Origin: an uncultured delta proteobacterium | GTDB lineage: Bacteria; Desulfobacterota; BSN033; UBA1163 | Direction of reading: 5' to 3' | Length of the DNA stretch: 64,000 nt | Assembly: GCA_963827685.1 (NCBI GenBank) | Contig: CAWHBU010000004.1 | Location: 192,001 to 256,000 of the forward strand | In this document: positions 8,404 through 13,015 of the stretch, one piece after another | How positions within the stretch are numbered: position 1 is the stretch's first letter | How the letters are laid out: each line of letters starts with the position of its first letter | Notes under the pieces: model-generated | What the model was told of the DNA's origin: nothing | The model's input: only the letters and a program-made list of their open reading frames with translations | The model's database searches: none | Translations under genes and position numbers: made by a program

Positions 8404-8561
8404 CGGGTGAGATTTCTTAAGGTAGGTCGAATGCCCCCTCTAAACACGAACTCCCCAAAAGTGCAGCGGGAAAAATACTAAGGAGGATCTTAGCAGAGGG
8501 GAAGAAATCGGCCACGGAAGGTGATAATAAATCGAAATGATTGCGGAAAGGAATTCAAAAC

Positions 8562-9750
8562 GTGAATGAAAGAGATTCTATAATTGTTTCTGCTGTGAGA
8601 ACCCCGATCGGCACCTTTGGAGGTTCGCTCAGGGATATCCCACATGAAGGATTGGCGGCTGCCGTCATGGGAGAAGTTTGTAATAGGGCTAGCTTCCCGA
8701 GAGAAGAGCTTGATGACATCTATTGGGGTGTGGTTATGGTTCGGAGTGACGAAAATGGCCTCGCACGTTCCGCAGCTTTAACTGCAGGAATACCAGACCA
8801 TGCCTCTGCCGTACAGGTCAATCGGGCTTGCTGCTCATCTATGGAGGCTATCAGGATTGGGTCCATGGCCATCCGCCTAGGGGAGGCAAACGCGATTATT
8901 GCCGGAGGCGGAGAAAGTATGAGCAACGTCCCCTATTCAATTAAGAACGGAAGATGGGGGTTGAGGCTTCGTCATCAAGAACTGACTGACGGTGTATGGG
9001 ACGGACTCACTGATCACCATACAGGTCTTATCATGGGGATGACTGCAGAGAATGTTGCAGAAAAATATAATATTTCGAGGGAGGATCAGGATAAGTTTTC
9101 CTACGAAAGTCAGATGCGGACCAAAAAGGCAATTGAGGAGGGAAGGTTTAAGGATGAAATCGTACCGATTAAGGTACCTGGAGAGAAAAAAGGGGAATTC
9201 AAGATGCTAGACACGGATGAATATCCGAGGCCAGGGACGACATTGGAAGGGCTGGGGCAAATTACCTCCCGCGTTCAAGAAAGAGGGTACGGTTACGGCA
9301 GGGAATTCATCTGGGATAAACGATGGAGCCTCTGCTATCTTGGTTTTATCCAGAAAAGTTGCGGACAGGTTTAATATCAAGAGAAAGTGGAGAGTTGTGG
9401 GTTCAGCAGCAATGGGTGTGGATCCTAGAATTATGGGGATTGGACCGATCCCGGCAATTAAAAAGCTTTTAAAACTGACTGGATATGATCTCAAGAAAAT
9501 AGAATTGTTCGAGATAAATGAAGCGTTCGCTGCACCCTCGATAGCTGTTGAGCGAGAACTTGGGTTGAATCATGCAATTGTAAATGTAAATGGTGGTGGA
9601 ATTGCCTTAGGTCACCCAATCGGGAATTCAGGTTGTGGTATCGTGGTGAGTTTGATCCATGAAATGGAAAAACGTGGGGTGAGACTTGGGCTTGCTGCTT
9701 TATGTGGTTGTGGCGGACACGGTCAAGCCATCCTCCTTGAACGAATTTAG
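8562..9750 (+). pseudogene. acetyl-CoA C-acetyltransferase (thiolase) with one frameshift in GGGG 9254-9257; possibly an assembly error
   Basis: SAVRTPIG, VNRACCS, GGESMS; removing one G gives [24 protein letters not shown], then NEAFA, GHPIG, LCGCGG. Confidence 0.88.
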
Positions 9751-10019
9751 TTCTTCTATTCCCCCCTGAAGTCTTCTTATTAATCGATGTTCTGTAAGAA
9801 TCATTTGTGCACATCTAGGGAAAAGCCGACAAGTTGTAGAATATGTCAAACAATTTATCAAGAAAAATGTTGGGTGGAGCTTTAAATGCAACGAAAATAT
9901 CAAAAGAATTTTCCCGGGAGATAGACAGATACGCGTAAGAGTATCTATATGTTGGTGGAAGAATTTATTACCACGCGGCCCTAATGATACCCCGGATGGG
10001 GTAAAGAATCAGATAAAGG

Positions 10020-10103
10020 TGTAACCAAATTGTAACCGTCTTAACCTAAAATAATCCAAGATAACCAAAGTTATTCCAACATGGGTTTTGTAAGTGCTTG
10101 ATA
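10020..10103. promoter_or_regulatory. probable att-arm sites and IHF site left of the tRNA-Leu fragment
   Basis: TGTAACC direct repeat at 10020-10026 and 10031-10037; TAAGTGCTTGATA at 10091-10103 matches the IHF consensus WATCAANNNNTTR on the minus strand. Confidence 0.5.
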
Positions 10104-10148
10104 TTTAACACATTGAAAATGATGGGAAATCGCCTGATTTGAGTTATC

Positions 10149-10207
10149 GACTTAAAATCCCTCGGTGGCCCCCCACCGTGCCGGTTCAAGTCCGGCCCTG
10201 GGCACCA
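10149..10207 (+). other. 3' fragment of tRNA-Leu(TAA); probable island attachment junction
   Basis: GACTTAAAATCC anticodon loop, long variable arm, GGTTCAAGTCC T-arm and CCA end; no D-arm or 5' acceptor strand upstream. Confidence 0.85.
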
Positions 10208-10275
10208 TGAAAATAAAGGGTTTTCTTGATATTGCAGGTTTAAGACGCAAGCCCTTTTTTCTTGTATCAACCCAT

Positions 10276-10297
10276 CCAGTCCCCACCCAGTCCCCAC
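10276..10297 (+). repeat. perfect 11-bp tandem CCAGTCCCCAC x2; probable integrase arm-type sites
   Basis: Seen directly, about 70 bp from the tRNA fragment; related CTTCCCAC/TTCCCCAT repeats occur at 12083-12110. Confidence 0.55.
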
Positions 10298-10377
10298 TTC
10301 TTCAACAATGGTGACAACCTGGACAGCACAGGCAGGATAAAAGGAAGCCTCCGTATTCACAACCACCATCCCCACCC

Positions 10378-11380
10378 TCTCTCCTTCATCGCACGATCGA
10401 CGACTTCTCTCACATGACGTTTTATGACGTTTTCTGTAGGAGCGGAGGGAATCTGGGAGCAAGAGGATCCTGAGGAATGGACGCCTCGGAGTATGTGCGC
10501 AGGGCTTGAAATTCTGCACGTTTTGAGGCGCCAAAGGCACAAACTCCCTCTTCCCCTATCCCTTTACCCCTAACCCGAGAGGACTACCCTTTTGTCGGCC
10601 TCTGTAGCCCCTTCCTGATAGCGTAGGAGGGGGTTTAGACGAGTCCTGACGGTGTGGTCTGGGAATCACCAGGGAGTTACTTCAATCGGTGTGGCCCCCA
10701 ATCTTCCGAAGGCGCTCTTTTACCTGATTTTCGATAGCCTCTGCAACCCAACTTTTATTAACCATCAGATAGTCAAAAGGTGAAGTTTTGTGAATGAGTT
10801 GAGGACTCCGACCTGCCAAAGGTGGGTTTCTTCCTCCCTCTGAATAGCTCCCATCACGAGTGTATTTTTGTGTATAAGATGGTAAGCAATCTCCCTGTCG
10901 GTCTGCACTCCCGCCCTGTGGAGATGGTCCTTCCTCGCTTTCTTAATCGCTTCCGAAACTAAAGTTTTCTTAAGTAGTTGGTTCGCAATAACATCGGCTT
11001 TTACTTCAGTTTTCTTCAGTAGTTCACAGGCAATCTCGGCAGCTATTTGCTTATTTTTACAGCGATAACCAGCACGTATTACAGCTTCGCTTCCATCTGC
11101 TTTTTAATCGCCTCTGAAACCCAACTTTTCCCAACCAGCATCGCCCGATTGACAGCTTCTCTCACTGGAGTTTTATGGAGCAGCTGGTAGGCCATCTCGG
11201 CGGCACGCTGGTCATTTTTGACTCGGAAGCCAGCACGCTTTACGGCCTCGCTTCCAACCCAAGTTTTACCAAGCAGTTGATCCGAGTAGAATAAACTTTT
11301 CTTAACCACTCCCTTACCTGTTTTTTCCCCTGCAAAAAATAATAAAAAGTCTTTCCGAGGGTGGAATTTTATGGAGTTTC
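10378..11380 (-). repeat. array of concatenated phage terminase small-subunit (terS) fragments; putative pac-site array
   Basis: Minus-strand translations repeatedly give the TerS helix-turn-helix segment (AVKRAGF..AAEMAYQLLHKTPVREAV; AVIRAGY..ELLKKTEV; QLLKKTLVSEAIKKA; ENVIKRHVREVVDRAMKER and others), each with a 10-bp-period direct repeat. Confidence 0.8.
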
Positions 11381-11551
11381 TTATTGTTTAACAGAATTTT
11401 GTTTAACAACAATATTCCATCCAGCCCCTATGATCTCCCAAATAAAATCTGTCAGGGTTTCTTTTCTCTTTTGAGCCTCCTCGATGATTCTTTTCTTCGC
11501 GGCGGGAGGGACTCGAATCGCTATTATTTGAGTCCTTCTTTCTCTGCTCAT
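11381..11551 (-). CDS. small ribbon-helix-helix (CopG/Arc-like) DNA-binding protein, 56 aa; absent from the ORF track
   Basis: MSRERRTQIIAIRVPPAAKKRIIEEAQKRKETLTDFIWEIIGAGW...; alternating beta-strand, helix, (T/S)L(T/S)DFI helix pattern; GAGGAGAGGAAGGA RBS. Confidence 0.65.
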   Translation of the reverse strand: MSRERRTQIIAIRVPPAAKKRIIEEAQKRKETLTDFIWEIIGAGWNIVVKQNSVKQ

Positions 11552-11741
11552 TCCTTCCTCTCCTCTTCGCTGAGTCCGCTGTTCGGTGGCTTCTGGATCG
11601 GGGTGGCTTCGAGAATTATCACCGTTTTACCGCCCGCTACCGCCCCCGTTTTCTTAGGCATCAATCCCGGAAGCACCTTAGAATAAAAGTCCAGCCATCC
11701 GCGCCAGTTCTTCGCCGCTCCAAGTCCGGCAGGTGTTTTTT
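11548..11741 (-). pseudogene. 3' part of a decayed phage-like ORF translationally coupled to the RHH gene
   Basis: Open frame ...AAKNWRGWLDFYSKVLPGLMPKKTGAVAGGKTVIILEATPIQKPPNSGLSEEERKE* ends in an ATGA overlap with the RHH start; no start codon in frame. Confidence 0.35.
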
Positions 11742-12205
11742 GTTACCCGTTGGGCTTTCCCGGTTGACGATCGCTCCCAACACCCGTTTGCAATCAAGTG
11801 CAACTTATCCCTCCACCGCCTGCCGGGATCAGACCCTTTGCCTCCCTGTTTCGTATGCCCACTGGGCAAACATCGTTCTTGGTCTACCATCGCCTTTGAA
11901 ATCCGTCACCCATATCGGCCCATATTTTATGCAAAAACTTACGCAAAAACACCCCAATGGGCAACCTCAATCTAATATTCCTCACTTTGTCAGGGGTGGT
12001 TTGACTTATAACCAATTCAGATCCTCTCCGGAAAAACAATGGGAAGGCTCCCCAGGTATTCTATCTGAAGCAGTTGGTCTGCCTTCCCACTTCCCACTAT
12101 TTTTCCCCATTTTAAGTTGCAAAATATGTTATACTGTGATAATTATCATTACAAAATGGGTGAATCGTTTCGCTAACTTATTGAAATTATAAATGGCCGC
12201 CTATT

Positions 12206-12252
12206 GACTTCTAATCCGTGGGTCGGGGGTTCGAATCCCTCCAGGCGCGCCA
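12206..12252 (+). other. 3' fragment of tRNA-Arg(TCT); probable attR of an element integrated at the head of the tRNA cluster
   Basis: GACTTCTAATCC anticodon loop, GGTTCGAATCC and GGCGCGCCA end; 5' half absent; IHF-like TAACTTATTGAAA at 12174-12186. Confidence 0.85.
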
Positions 12253-12359
12253 AGGTGGGTACCAATGCAAACTGCAAAATTAACAATGCAAAATTAGCCG
12301 CGCAGTTCAATTGCTAATTGACCATTGCTAATTGACCAATTTGCAATGATCTTTTCAAT

Positions 12360-12437
12360 GGTGAGTGTAGCTCAGTTGGATAGAGCACTGGGTTGTGGCC
12401 CCAGTGGTCGAGGGTTCGAGTCCCTTCACTCACCCCA
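12360..12437 (+). tRNA. tRNA-His(GTG)
   Basis: Cloverleaf, encoded G-1, anticodon GTG, CCA end. Confidence 0.95.
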
Positions 12438-12439
12438 AA

Positions 12440-12516
12440 GCGCCCGTAGCTCAGTTGGATAGAGCGTCGGACTTCGAATCCGCAGGTCGTCCGTTCGAGC
12501 CGGACCGGGCGCGCCA
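12440..12516 (+). tRNA. tRNA-Arg(TCG)
   Basis: GCGCCCG/CGGGCGC acceptor stem, anticodon TCG, CCA end. Confidence 0.95.
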
Positions 12517-12648
12517 CCCATAAGAAACAAATGCAAATTATAAAATTAACAATGCAAAGTTAGCAGTACTGCTGAATCATGTTGAGTCGTTCAATTGCTA
12601 ATTGAGCATTGTTAATTGACCATTTTGCAATGATCTTTTTGGCGAAAA

Positions 12649-12724
12649 GAGCCGTTAGCTCAATAGGTAGAGCAACTGACTCTTAATCAGTAGGTTACAG
12701 GTTCGATTCCTGTACGGCTCACCA
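12649..12724 (+). tRNA. tRNA-Lys(CTT)
   Basis: GAGCCGT/ACGGCTC acceptor stem, anticodon CTT, CCA end. Confidence 0.95.
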
Positions 12725-12772
12725 TTTTTTAACAATTTTATCTTTTGTGCTTTTTGCAGGCGCGGATTTTTT

Positions 12773-12859
12773 GCCGGGGTGGCGAAATTGGAATACGCGC
12801 GAGACTTAGGATCTCGTGGTCGAGAGACTGTGCGGGTTCGAGTCCCGCCCTCGGCACCA
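12773..12859 (+). tRNA. tRNA-Leu(TAG)
   Basis: Long variable arm, anticodon TAG, CCA end. Confidence 0.95.
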
Positions 12860-13015
12860 TAATAAAAAGGAAATTCTAAATTCGAAGTGCGAAATCCGAA
12901 TTTCCACGAGAGCGTGAGTCGTAAGTGGTTTACCCCTCACCCTTCACGCGTTAGCCCTTACGTGTCAAGATTTCGATATTCGGATTTTGGGTTTCTAAAT
13001 TTAGAGGGATATTTC

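Follow-up and report, generated by a model that had tools for sequence, protein, structure and literature searches.

Stacked fragments of small-terminase genes in a putative satellite remnant of an uncultured delta proteobacterium

Packaging signals and displaced gene modules in described systems

Small terminases decide which DNA enters the phage head, and little is understood of the ways in which phages and satellites alter this specificity. In phage T4, terminase promotes recombination between pac-like sequences, as in the amplification of genes 16/19. The rhs, cdiA, and maf loci carry orphan 3' modules with immunity genes, and pilS cassettes are bounded by conserved recombination sequences; a reservoir function has been shown for these arrangements. 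Homology-facilitated illegitimate recombination and microhomology-mediated break-induced replication are general repair routes.

For phage SPP1, the parts of two reports drawn upon here describe a single pac composed of pacL, pacC, and pacR, which overlaps promoters, the ribosome-binding site, and the portion of gene 1 coding for the DNA-binding domain (DBD), with pacL and pacC in the leader and the first codons (PMC6316719, PMC4737164). Satellites, according to excerpts of the literature on them, redirect packaging by a small terminase (TerS) of their own or by a copied helper signal (10.1101/2024.04.22.590561, PMC8494744), and the consulted part of one preprint gives mimicry of packaging signals as established for P4, SaPIbov5, and PLE (bioRxiv 10.1101/2024.04.22.590561). 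At the level of listings and abstracts, the literature searched contained no satellite with stacked terS fragments.

Such a stack is present in the window, the whole 64,000-nucleotide stretch of DNA analysed. On the minus strand between positions 10686 and 11284, terS pieces follow each other in one orientation, end to end and without gaps, and all of the stacked pieces represent codons ~22 to 73 of an SF6/SPP1-type small terminase (Terminase_2), which is the helix-turn-helix (HTH) DNA-binding domain plus the linker helix. The pac-overlapping, DBD-coding segment of SPP1 gene 1 is thus the segment stacked here, and the statement of the preliminary description that this segment is the place of pac in the best-studied relative holds for SPP1 in the portion of the source used (PMC6316719). 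In contrast to the one pac of SPP1, seven to eight partial copies of different alleles, most of them without leader or start, are found here in a non-viral remnant, and the link to pac is by analogy. Only codons ~22 to 73 are represented in the pieces, and a 38-nt leader copy is located separately at 10764-10801.

PICIs and SaPIs are resembled by an element on another contig of the same genome, C2, which has an integrase, a replication protein, and terS without structural genes, whereas known mimicry concerns one signal and one helper and the window copy is a wreck. With rhs, cdiA, maf, and pilS, the stack shares co-oriented partial copies of the variable specificity part, located by or derived from a full gene, and successive displacement; it differs by being composed of 5' modules of 49 to 124 nt with microhomology joins and no expression locus alongside. 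A small terminase segment doubling as packaging signal, a recombination hot spot, and tandem amplification recall T4, in which identical short sequences within one genome recombine, while the pieces here come from many alleles. Joins with 0 to 7 nt of microhomology, short same-orientation pieces of related templates, and one side anchored by homology agree with the two repair routes, the action of which at this stack would be deduced from junction anatomy only.

Composition of the stack and its surroundings

The features of the interval are given in the reading direction of the stack, with identities to the nearest alleles at the nucleotide (nt) and amino acid (aa) levels.

12206-12252 (+): tRNA-Arg(TCT)-like sequence without the 5' half, 3' part only, left over from an integration site on the integrase side; repeat family D1
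11548-11676 (-): tail remnant of the gene preceding the ribbon-helix-helix (RHH) gene in relatives; 10/12 residues of the C terminus of the L017 124-aa ORF
11381-11551 (-): RHH-like gene, 56 aa, intact, which precedes terS in this satellite family
11257-11309 (-): start of open frame A, a shortened terS N terminus plus piece 1, the helix-3 motif at 11257-11284; piece 1, 93% nt over 28 nt to L048, 9/9 aa to P0010, P0017, and P0048
11139-11262 (-): terS piece 2, about codons 20-57, nhmmer E=5e-17; 75% nt to L056, 74% to L024, 79% aa to P0045
11090-11138 (-): terS piece 3, about codons 44-60, identified by nt and aa alleles; 96% over 49 nt to L037, 94% nt to the C2 orphan piece, 94% aa to P0051
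10990-11095 (-): terS piece 4, about codons 22-52, Pfam Terminase_2 above cut-off for 10894-11097; 84% nt to L043, 94% aa to P0055, 91% to P0047
10893-10998 (-): terS piece 5, about codons 37-73, nhmmer E=3.7e-13; 75% nt to L044, 74% aa over 31 residues to P0038 and P0017
10804-10897 (-): terS piece 6, about codons 40-70, nhmmer E=3.6e-8; 78% nt to L050, 84% aa over 25 residues to P0057
10764-10801 (-): terS 5' leader copy, 38 nt; 89% to the C2 leader, 87% to the L031 leader
10686-10764 (-): terS piece 8, about codons 45-72, nhmmer E=5e-7; 77% nt to L048, 78% to C2, 85% aa over 20 residues to P0060
10450-10685 (-): spacer of non-terS sequence; 78% (253 nt) and 82% (45 nt) identity to C2
10379-10432 (-): weak terS piece, about codons 48-60, nhmmer E=0.0074, profile 136-188
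10150-10207 (+): tRNA-Leu(TAA)-like sequence without the 5' half, 3' part from the anticodon loop through the CCA end, left over from an integration site on the terS side

A DNA profile of the terS N terminus gave eight matches at E<=0.01 in the whole 5.23-Mb genome. Five of these were located inside the window at 10685-11261 (E 5e-17 to 5e-7), the other three being the intact terS on C2, one orphan piece on C2, and a weak match on C6. Every window piece was within positions 66-220 of the full-length terS DNA profile, while the intact C2 copy spans positions 16-611; terS beyond position 220 of this profile is absent from the window, and tblastn of the C2 terS against the window yielded no match past residue 68. 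On the protein level, the translation of 10894-11097 (-) was assigned to Terminase_2 by Pfam with E=4e-7 and 31.2 bits (cut-off 26.1), covering profile positions 19-47 and a second stretch. The frame at 11079-11309 (-) reached E=0.006 under the cut-off (profile 16-53), and the remaining three fragment ORFs tested had no Terminase_2 match. The Pfam match above cut-off together with the DNA-profile matches confirmed the earlier assignment of the segment to the N-terminal HTH of a Terminase_2-type TerS.

This terS family is homologous to SF6 TerS (3zqp, E=4e-12; also the DBD chains 4zc3 and 2cmp), and its HTH DNA-binding domain, of which distinct allele classes exist that are common to satellites and phages, corresponds to the first third of the gene. 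The stacked segment is the least conserved part of terS, with an aa identity of 0.38 to 0.60 (residues 13-72) versus 0.50 to 0.72 in most later windows of alignment A1. Synonymous-site conservation across the family revealed no family-wide cis-element signal in the segment, class-specific sites being beyond the reach of this analysis. All pieces contain the helix-3 codons, about 45-52, and a 21-nt helix-3 motif (repeat D2) occurs four times with 71-100% identity. No open frame of the window contains the oligomerisation core and C-terminal part of terS; three open stretches, 11309-11079, about 11103-10768, and 10819-10682, are needed to read the stack. Tandem Repeats Finder reported only five rows with periods of 10 to 14 nt and no regular array of one unit, the repeat analysis contained no CRISPR-like spacer-repeat pattern, and Rfam gave no match in the interval, so that a regular repeat array or an RNA family was dropped as a candidate.

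The full-length alleles best matching the individual pieces did so with 74-94% aa and 75-96% nt identity (9/9 aa for the short piece 1). Along the stack, the best aa alleles were, in order, P0010/17/48, P0045, P0051, P0055, P0038/P0017, P0057, and P0060. Judged from these matches, the pieces are derived from at least six different terS versions or allele classes. Several of the nearest alleles (L037, L044, L050, and L043) are satellite loci and not helpers, while the nearest alleles of known context for piece 2 are phage-borne, such as L024 with terL downstream; piece 2 resembles L024, L054, and L057, all with terL. Differences from the best alleles were distributed over the three codon positions as 24/186, 22/185, and 69/186 (chi-square p=9e-11). 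Since the mismatches are mostly at third positions, the pieces stem from working genes. A single gene duplicated in tandem on the spot and then drifting was ruled out on this bias and because each piece is nearer to its own full-length allele.

Thus, the claim that the locus is a set of captured, co-oriented terS fragments, representing the same codons of different alleles, was borne out by the best aa and nt matches of each piece, as was the expectation that the fragments would match different terS alleles over the same codons. Of the nine items originally listed, two need correction. The supposed coding unit QLIHKTS at 10781-10804 is instead part of the leader copy at 10764-10801, which joins piece 8 via a microhomology of about 5 nt, by which an ATG arises. 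The piece at 10378-10437 is weakly supported, by the nhmmer match at 10379-10432, by 8/12 residues shared with C2 terS residues 49-60 in tblastn, and by a 36-nt repeat (D9) that is 78% like 11139-11174 at the end of piece 2. The spacer at 10450-10685 comes after piece 8, which terminates at a stop common to the C2 orphan piece, and the C2 counterpart of the spacer comes after that orphan piece. Neither the full-length terS DNA profile nor Rfam matched this spacer, and a decayed terS continuation was ruled out by the missing profile match.

The stack occupies the exact place of terS in relatives, downstream of the RHH gene, a homologue of which is located upstream of terS in nine loci. The RHH protein is 87% identical (aa) to its L017 homologue and 73% to that of C2, with a weak NikA-like match (E=0.018), and 11548-11676 has 71% nt identity to L017 103-178. 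A 42-nt repeat (D6) within 10150-10207 resembles the genuine tRNA-Leu at 12827-12868 (81%), and positions 1-74 of the search query match tRNA loci of relatives at 84-95%. The second tRNA-like part, 12206-12252, is 80% identical to a fragment beside the C2 integrase, and synteny with relatives begins here, with G010, G006, and G004 matching from there rightwards. In Logan contigs of sequencing runs, tRNA 5' halves appear as loose ends at 10149 (run X6) and at 12205-12208 (all four runs); ARAGORN called no tRNA at 10150-10207 or 12206-12252. Neither a replication gene nor a terS core was found in the window remnant, and its best integrase match (E=0.05) is not significant; unlike a PICI-like element, it has neither an integrase by the attachment site nor its own replication module with a packaging gene. 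By its sequence, the window element is a decayed PICI-like satellite remnant beside a tRNA cluster rather than a working member. A role as island cargo, as previously proposed for the neighboring genes, found no support: the genes of the left flank are of an ordinary beta-oxidation type, and synteny in relatives is confined to the right flank.

The C2 element is an intact paralogous satellite of 11 ORFs with an integrase (PF00589, 6e-27), a replication protein (phrog_9432, 2e-18), terS (1e-28), and one orphan terS piece; six other proteins were scanned without a PHROG family match, and no structural gene was seen. The orphan piece is of a class foreign to the terS of C2 and is placed upstream of that terS. 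This only intact terS of the genome has just 41 nt in common with the stack, at 80%, and no helper prophage with this terS type was found in the genome.

Junctions, relatives, and population variants

The piece junctions overlap by 0 to 7 nt and have no common motif, which indicates that there is no site-specific core. Microhomology at some junctions had been noticed before and is reproduced here, as are the frame breaks, now positioned at 11090-11095 and after 10804. The junctions without a common core ruled out that terS was the target of site-specific recombination or integration, as did G049, which is a deletion joint with a truncated integrase instead of a clean att junction. The class of piece 2 possesses a similar motif before the HTH, which gave rise to the idea that the junction of pieces 1 and 2 is the natural N terminus of this class; the nucleotide alignment favors a true junction with a 6- to 7-nt overlap. 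The frame is kept at four of the five coding-to-coding junctions (hand binomial p about 0.045). Selection, whether on the stack itself or on a translated product, fits this no less well than the argument that only in-frame stacks survive.

With a metagenome-type assembly and a contamination of 8%, an assembly chimera of several strain alleles might be considered. Assembler joins, however, cannot be seeded by overlaps as short as these (at most 7 nt), runs of three other studies (X3, X6, and X7) have contigs across junctions J1-J5, and protein P0123, recorded for an 881,707-nt contig, is open frame A of the window, all of which makes a chimera extremely unlikely. The contigs of X1, possibly the source sample, bridge J5-J7. 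The stack is not an assembly artefact. Contigs of X3, X6, and X7 cover part of the stretch, and the uncovered parts are uninformative. Since X3 carries the stack at 91-99% identity, it is not ephemeral. An X7 contig lacks 138 nt (46 codons), equal to one D2 repeat spacing, and an X1 contig lacks 374 nt, with one letter between (corresponding D2/D5 spacing, 373 nt). These variants break at the repeated helix-3 motif. A comparison for gain and loss of units, as had been suggested, shows that units are gained or lost between populations.

Among 55 related loci, including nine with the RHH-terS satellite arrangement, none has extra terS pieces, a DNA search of 40 relatives found no such array, and terS itself was found in only 3 of 55 family genomes. 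ORF-based searches detect in-frame stacks only. P0105 matched 3 of 68 class genomes and P0121 matched 3 of 401 phylum genomes, both counts including this genome (G000); P0105 and the RHH protein had no matches in the viral contigs searched. The search with ORF-B left P0122 as the sole find among five candidates, and the N terminus that opens frame A also opens P0122, from a different contig of 911 nt. P0121 is a 116-aa ORF with a canonical terS N terminus followed by two further pieces in frame, while the sequence of P0105 suggests that, on a contig other than that of the window, the last piece continues without a frame change into a gene core that is intact. From these sequences, one other contig of 54 kb appears to hold a similar stack; P0121 and P0105 are each on one contig with a longest-contig figure of 54001, and if both figures refer to the same contig, two ORFs divide the stack there, too. 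A junction from a class-B end (residue ~73) to class-C residue ~40 is present in the window, P0121, and P0105, and the pieces flanking it in the latter two resemble different canonical alleles. This recurring junction could be a favored, repeatedly used joint rather than a random scar. Disruption of the terS 5' region was also seen in G049, in which a terS remnant from residue ~63 adjoins an integrase remnant, and in homologues of 131 to 138 aa starting at residue ~74-80, of which there are four among the best 120 of 129 (E<=1e-5).

Origin and possible function of the stack

The different-allele origin of the pieces, the microhomology at the junctions, the decay of the element, and the population variants are observed. 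The most likely reading, at roughly even odds in the judgment made here, is that the stack is a by-product of break-driven illegitimate recombination at the 5' or pac region of terS and not a purpose-built device; the source of the breaks, the repair route, and the absence of a selected function are inferred. DNA ends would arise repeatedly in the DBD-coding segment, because this segment overlaps pac in SPP1/SF6-type phages, so that terminase cuts there and packaged molecules begin there; a pac or break site in this segment is assumed for the present phages by analogy to SPP1/SF6. Non-identical terS genes of co-infecting phages and satellites may be the partners to which these ends are joined, or the templates for copying, in a microhomology-mediated illegitimate recombination, with the joins anchored by homology further downstream, and homology-facilitated illegitimate recombination or template-switching break repair are possible routes. 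In each event, the old piece would stay and a new piece be added that starts further back in the gene, so that partial copies from different alleles, all of the same codons, would pile up in one orientation. In the active satellite, survival would have been limited to stacks that stay in frame; the gene core, the integrase, and the replication genes may have been lost later, with frameshifts appearing, and unequal recombination between repeated helix-3 motifs would now remove or add units. The recurrent disruption of the terS 5' region in G049 and the 131- to 138-aa homologues was counted for this scenario, and the recurrent class-B/class-C junction, the persistence in X3, and the in-frame junctions against it. 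The rarity of stacks argues against a general hot spot, unless they are quickly purged.

The pieces may instead form a selected collection in which each is the recognition site of one TerS class, so that several helpers package the satellite or the neighboring chromosome, in the direction of lower coordinates. The position of the pieces in the segment overlapping pac of SPP1 (as far as described in the source parts used), the at least six allele classes with a phage-borne one among them (piece 2), the helix-3 codons in all pieces, the presence of the stack in runs of other studies, and the mimicry given as established in the consulted part of the literature on P4, SaPIbov5, and PLE (bioRxiv 10.1101/2024.04.22.590561) agree with this, and the C2 satellite, which looks active, has retained one piece of a foreign class ahead of its terS. 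Such a collection is nevertheless rather unlikely: the pieces lack the leader and the first ~21 codons, the site of pacL and pacC in the SPP1 descriptions used, several nearest alleles belong to satellites and not helpers, synonymous sites of the segment showed no constraint across the family, the host element can neither replicate nor excise, the related loci have no extra pieces even in the RHH-terS arrangement, and the genome has no helper prophage of this terS type. Moreover, the junctions resemble illegitimate recombination, and one listed unit is a leader copy. Layout alone, with a retained RHH gene and pieces of several classes in a non-mobile remnant, would also fit an anti-phage decoy or trap that titrates incoming TerS, draws terminase cuts to the chromosome in an abortive infection, or produces antisense RNA against terS. 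No defence gene is in the ORF lists of the remnant, no RNA data set was among the listed runs containing the sequence, and such arrays are rare, which leaves this very improbable.

Orphan toxin tips in rhs/cdi loci and pilS cassettes are the parallel for a store of displaced specificity modules, in which silent upstream DBD cassettes recombine back and switch the packaging specificity of terS. The co-oriented partial copies of the variable part of the gene without gene ends, the conserved motif that borders the units and at which they recombine in populations, and the in-frame run of the last piece into an intact core suggested by P0105 would be expected of such a store, but the 41 nt shared with the only intact terS are too little for gene conversion, no gene core adjoins the stack, and the joins are by microhomology instead of conserved recombination boxes; a module store is accordingly improbable. 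A comparably low probability is given to the remnant of a translated composite TerS with extra helix-3/linker segments and possibly wider DNA recognition, here a pseudogene with two frame breaks. The kept frames, the 116-aa P0121, and the missing unit of 46 codons in X7 speak for it; the window copy is broken and without core, a stack shared by P0121 and P0105 on one contig would be split as well, and the ORF-based searches are blind to out-of-frame cases.

Break-driven recombination and selection have different consequences. The locus represents, in natural sequence, a piecemeal exchange of the terS DBD segment between phages and satellites that is able to pile up as fragments. If breaks were the cause, the packaging start region is a hot spot of illegitimate recombination, and the stack provides a sequence signature for finding such sites. 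A selected stack would be the first array of packaging signals for multiple helpers and would matter for gene transfer in communities of anaerobic sediments. That satellites of this lineage collect foreign terminase DBD segments in their own terS as a working set of packaging signals or specificities, for several unrelated helpers or for a helper switch by recombination, is doubtful although conceivable; if true, the window remnant would still make the neighboring chromosome a high-frequency transduction target for several phages.

Homing-type HNH genes next to terS are absent from this genome and were found only in L024 and, as a fragment, in L039. The two HNH genes upstream of terS in L024, a phage of this group, could point to another mode of packaging or cutting, which counts against break-driven scarring at pac; as a loose idea, the homing-type HNH of L024 may itself be a source of breaks.

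Composition of the stack of terS pieces

The minus strand of 10200-11600 was not spanned by any single gene. As read from the ORFs, the interval was tiled by open stretches in three frames:
11309-11079 (-), open stretch
about 11103-10768 (-), open stretch
10819-10682 (-), open stretch

For the N-terminal region of terS, a DNA profile was made from 32 distinct sequences of related loci; searched against the whole 5.23-Mb genome, it yielded eight matches at E ≤ 0.01. Five of these were located in 10685-11261, a packing that far exceeds chance; the remaining three were the intact terS on contig C2, one orphan piece on C2, and a weak match on contig C6. The tiling and the clustered matches bore out the preliminary description, which had proposed co-oriented terS pieces rather than one gene. 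Its assignment to Pfam Terminase_2 was upheld in part: the translation of 10894-11097 matched in two stretches (E = 4e-7, 31.2 bits) above the cut-off of 26.1, that of 11079-11309 was below it (E = 0.006), and three other fragment ORFs tested had no match. Both matches mapped to the N-terminal positions 16-68 of the 141-position profile. The proposed unit 10781-10804 turned out to belong to a copied terS leader of 38 nt, which shared 89% identity with its counterpart in front of the intact C2 gene and 87% with that of the related locus L031, and the terS likeness of 10378-10437 was present but weak. The stretch 10450-10685, a spacer also present in C2, was rejected as terS since it gave no terS profile match.

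With the intact paralogue as query, 129 of 296 candidates qualified as homologues at E ≤ 1e-5, and 120 of these were listed. In their alignment, residues ~13-72 were the most variable and sorted into recognisable allele classes. Over the same residues, the best allele differed from piece to piece.

Best alleles of the pieces at the amino-acid level (minus strand; P numbers, homologous proteins)
Piece 1, 11257-11284: P0010, P0017, P0048; 9/9 aa
Piece 2, 11139-11262: P0045; 79% aa
Piece 3, 11090-11138: P0051; 94% aa
Piece 4, 10990-11095: P0055; 94% aa
Piece 5, 10893-10998: P0038, P0017; 74% aa
Piece 6, 10804-10897: P0057; 84% aa over 25
Piece 8, 10686-10764: P0060; 85% aa over 20
Piece 9: P0007; 64% aa over 14 (weak)

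At the nucleotide level, the segments abutted without filler and each was closest to a different locus (75-96%), so that the expectation of different terS alleles over the same codons held at both levels. The differences between a piece and its best locus affected 24 of 186 first, 22 of 185 second, and 69 of 186 third codon positions (p = 9e-11), which indicates that the pieces were coding sequence while they and the sampled alleles diverged. Local duplication of one gene followed by drift, which the preliminary description had named as speaking against its reading, was rejected by this third-position bias and by the closer full-length allele that exists elsewhere for each piece.

Junctions and their rearrangement in other populations

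When the window was aligned in three lines with the two "parents" of each junction, the overlap was 0-7 nt and the junctions had no motif in common. This is a signature of illegitimate, microhomology-mediated joining rather than of a site-specific recombinase, and overlaps this short also exclude assembler overlaps as the origin of the joins. The frame was kept at four of the five coding-to-coding junctions, the exception being 11090-11095 (p about 0.045 against a one-in-three expectation, calculated by hand), and from piece 1 to piece 6 every junction stepped back to an earlier terS codon. In the window and in the homologues P0121 and P0105 alike, residue ~73 of one class was joined to residue ~40 of a different class.

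Logan contigs of four sequencing runs from four studies were compared over 9900-12300; one of the runs, X1, is possibly the source sample. Run X3 had kept the stretch from the ribbon-helix-helix-like (RHH) gene, 11381-11551 (-), through piece 6 at about 91-99% identity, and the junctions J1-J5 were bridged by contigs of X3, X6, and X7. An X7 contig joined 11139 to 11278, skipping 138 nt and with them piece 2; D2, the 21-nt helix-3 repeat, has two copies at exactly this distance. An X1 contig joined 10717 to 11092 with one letter between; here 374 nt were skipped, compared to a matching D2/D5 spacing of 373 nt, and pieces 4-6 and the leader copy were gone. An X6 contig joined 10717 to 11164 with 28 other letters between. 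The agreement of skips and repeat spacing indicates loss or gain of units by unequal recombination at the repeated motif; gain and loss of units in orthologous loci was what the preliminary description had suggested looking for.

Satellite remnant, paralogous element, and relatives

The gene order in the related locus L017 was a 124-aa ORF, the RHH gene, and a 218-aa terS; in the window it was the tail of an L017-type 124-aa ORF, an intact RHH gene (87% aa), and the stack, which thus occupies the terS position of relatives. Of a satellite, nothing further was left in the window remnant: no integrase, replication gene, or terS core was detected, and the host element is, by its gene content, a dead satellite. 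Its ends and surroundings were:
10150-10207, Leu(TAA)-like tRNA 3' part without 5' half, one end
12206-12252, Arg(TCT)-like tRNA 3' part without 5' half, other end
12361-12859, real tRNAs beyond the Arg-like fragment

Synteny with relatives was limited to the part from 12206 to the right, which takes in the tRNAs, tig, clpP, and clpX; beta-oxidation-type genes formed the left flank. There, a thiolase gene at 8541-9750 (+) was divided between two frames that overlap, 8541-9374 with Thiolase_N and 9217-9750 with the Thiolase_N end plus Thiolase_C; either the gene is frameshifted or a pseudogene, or the sequence has an error. The stretch 9981-10223, which comprises the tRNA-Leu fragment and the sequence to its left, had collinear counterparts at about 85-90% both in relatives (G006:C102, G009:C116) and in other runs' contigs; a different family of integrative elements may have its conserved end here. 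The tRNA spacers 12261-12355 and 12527-12639 were filled by ~51-nt direct repeats (78-94%) plus matching inverted repeats (D3, D4, I1-I3).

The paralogous element on C2 (about 8 kb; integrase, adjoined by an Arg-like tRNA fragment, replication protein, RHH gene, 209-aa terS) looks complete in sequence. Between a 119-aa ORF and the RHH gene it carried an extra block (10479-11566 of the C2 locus L016) with an orphan foreign-class terS piece, a spacer of about 260 nt that is the same as in the window, and a cysteine-rich 167-aa ORF without Pfam or PHROG match. The block was absent from L017 and from L031, the terS of which was 97% identical in protein to that of C2.

The comparison set comprised 55 other loci, namely 47 from metagenomes, six viral ones, L017, and L020, with many short contigs among them; within this limit, no locus had a second N-terminal terS match by tblastn or DNA profile. 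A single match was found in 49 loci by tblastn (none in six) and in 48 by the profile (none in seven). An RHH gene was located upstream of terS in nine loci, and a large terminase at least 76% aa identical to that of the phage locus L024 was present in 11, downstream of terS wherever terS was on the locus; the family is therefore common to satellites and phages. No comparable array was found by DNA in 40 relatives, and the samples at family, class, and phylum level had none either. When open frame B was searched against the full library with HMMER, five matches resulted. P0121 began with a canonical terS N-terminus followed by two further pieces in frame, and P0122 had a start like that of the window's frame A joined straight to a piece-4-type allele. 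P0105, which came from the homologue search with the intact paralogue, contained the end of one piece plus another piece, then an intact core. P0121 and P0105 were each on a single contig with a length of 54001 given for both, and because of this shared figure they are probably side by side.

Proposed origin of the stack and possible link to packaging

The terS family is homologous to the SF6 small terminase (3zqp, E = 4e-12). In SPP1, pac overlaps the gene 1 segment that codes for the DNA-binding domain as well as the RBS and the promoters, and TerS binds pacL and pacR with cleavage in pacC between them (PMC6316719, PMC4737164). By this analogy, the stacked codons 22-73 would be on the encapsidated side; the leader and the first terS codons were missing from the pieces. 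The locus closest to piece 2, L024, had two HNH genes (206-751 and 1594-2115) upstream of terS, which makes the packaging mode of these phages uncertain. One was of the homing-endonuclease type (phrog_59, 5e-48), absent from the other loci save for a 49-residue fragment in L039, and terS breaks might alternatively stem from it.

Repeated joining or copying at DNA ends within the stacked segment has about an even chance of being the explanation. Ends would arise there repeatedly, most obviously when terminase cuts at pac or when packaged DNA comes in with its pac-proximal ends, and would be joined to, or copied from, other terS alleles, with homology further downstream as an anchor. This reading is favoured by the step-back junctions, the microhomology joins, and the shared orientation of short pieces that represent one segment in different alleles, and the continuity of the last piece with the gene core in another contig fits the anchor. 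Recurrent disruption of the same part of terS supports it as well: in L020 (G049:C21), a terS remnant at 1250-1899, with a transposase nearby, begins at residue ~63 and borders on the final ~50 codons of an opposite-strand tyrosine recombinase, so that the deletion breakpoint falls into this part, and four homologues of 131-138 aa among those listed start at residue ~74-80, without the DNA-binding domain. Alternatively, the stack may be a selected collection of packaging signals, as the preliminary description had it. This would explain why other populations retain it and why the active-looking C2 element has a foreign-class piece. It is rather improbable, though, given that pac would be incomplete by the SPP1 model, several donors are satellite-derived, stacks are rare, and the host element is dead. 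A store of modules, a translated composite TerS, a decoy, or an artefact is also less likely than joining at DNA ends.

Orphan-module arrays and silent cassettes resemble the stack by layout only. The stack is an unusually dense and informative form of the recombination mosaicism of a phage or satellite gene. Stacked terS fragments were not described in the literature searched, mainly abstracts; among the nearest known systems are the pac-in-terS arrangement of SPP1 and satellites that encode a TerS of their own or mimic packaging signals (10.1101/2024.04.22.590561, PMC8494744).

The four homologues of 131-138 aa without the DNA-binding domain are P0022, P0103, P0110, and P0111. In P0107, another terS, the C-terminus was swapped for the tail sequence otherwise seen ahead of the RHH gene, and this and the short forms hint at further rearrangements in the family. 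Among 31 distinct full-length terS loci, third-base identity at the same amino acid peaked at 0.66-0.69 at the terS 3' end (residues 181-204) compared to 0.40-0.46 in residues 13-84; the sequence there may have been homogenised recently, or the satellite's end may contain a cis element.
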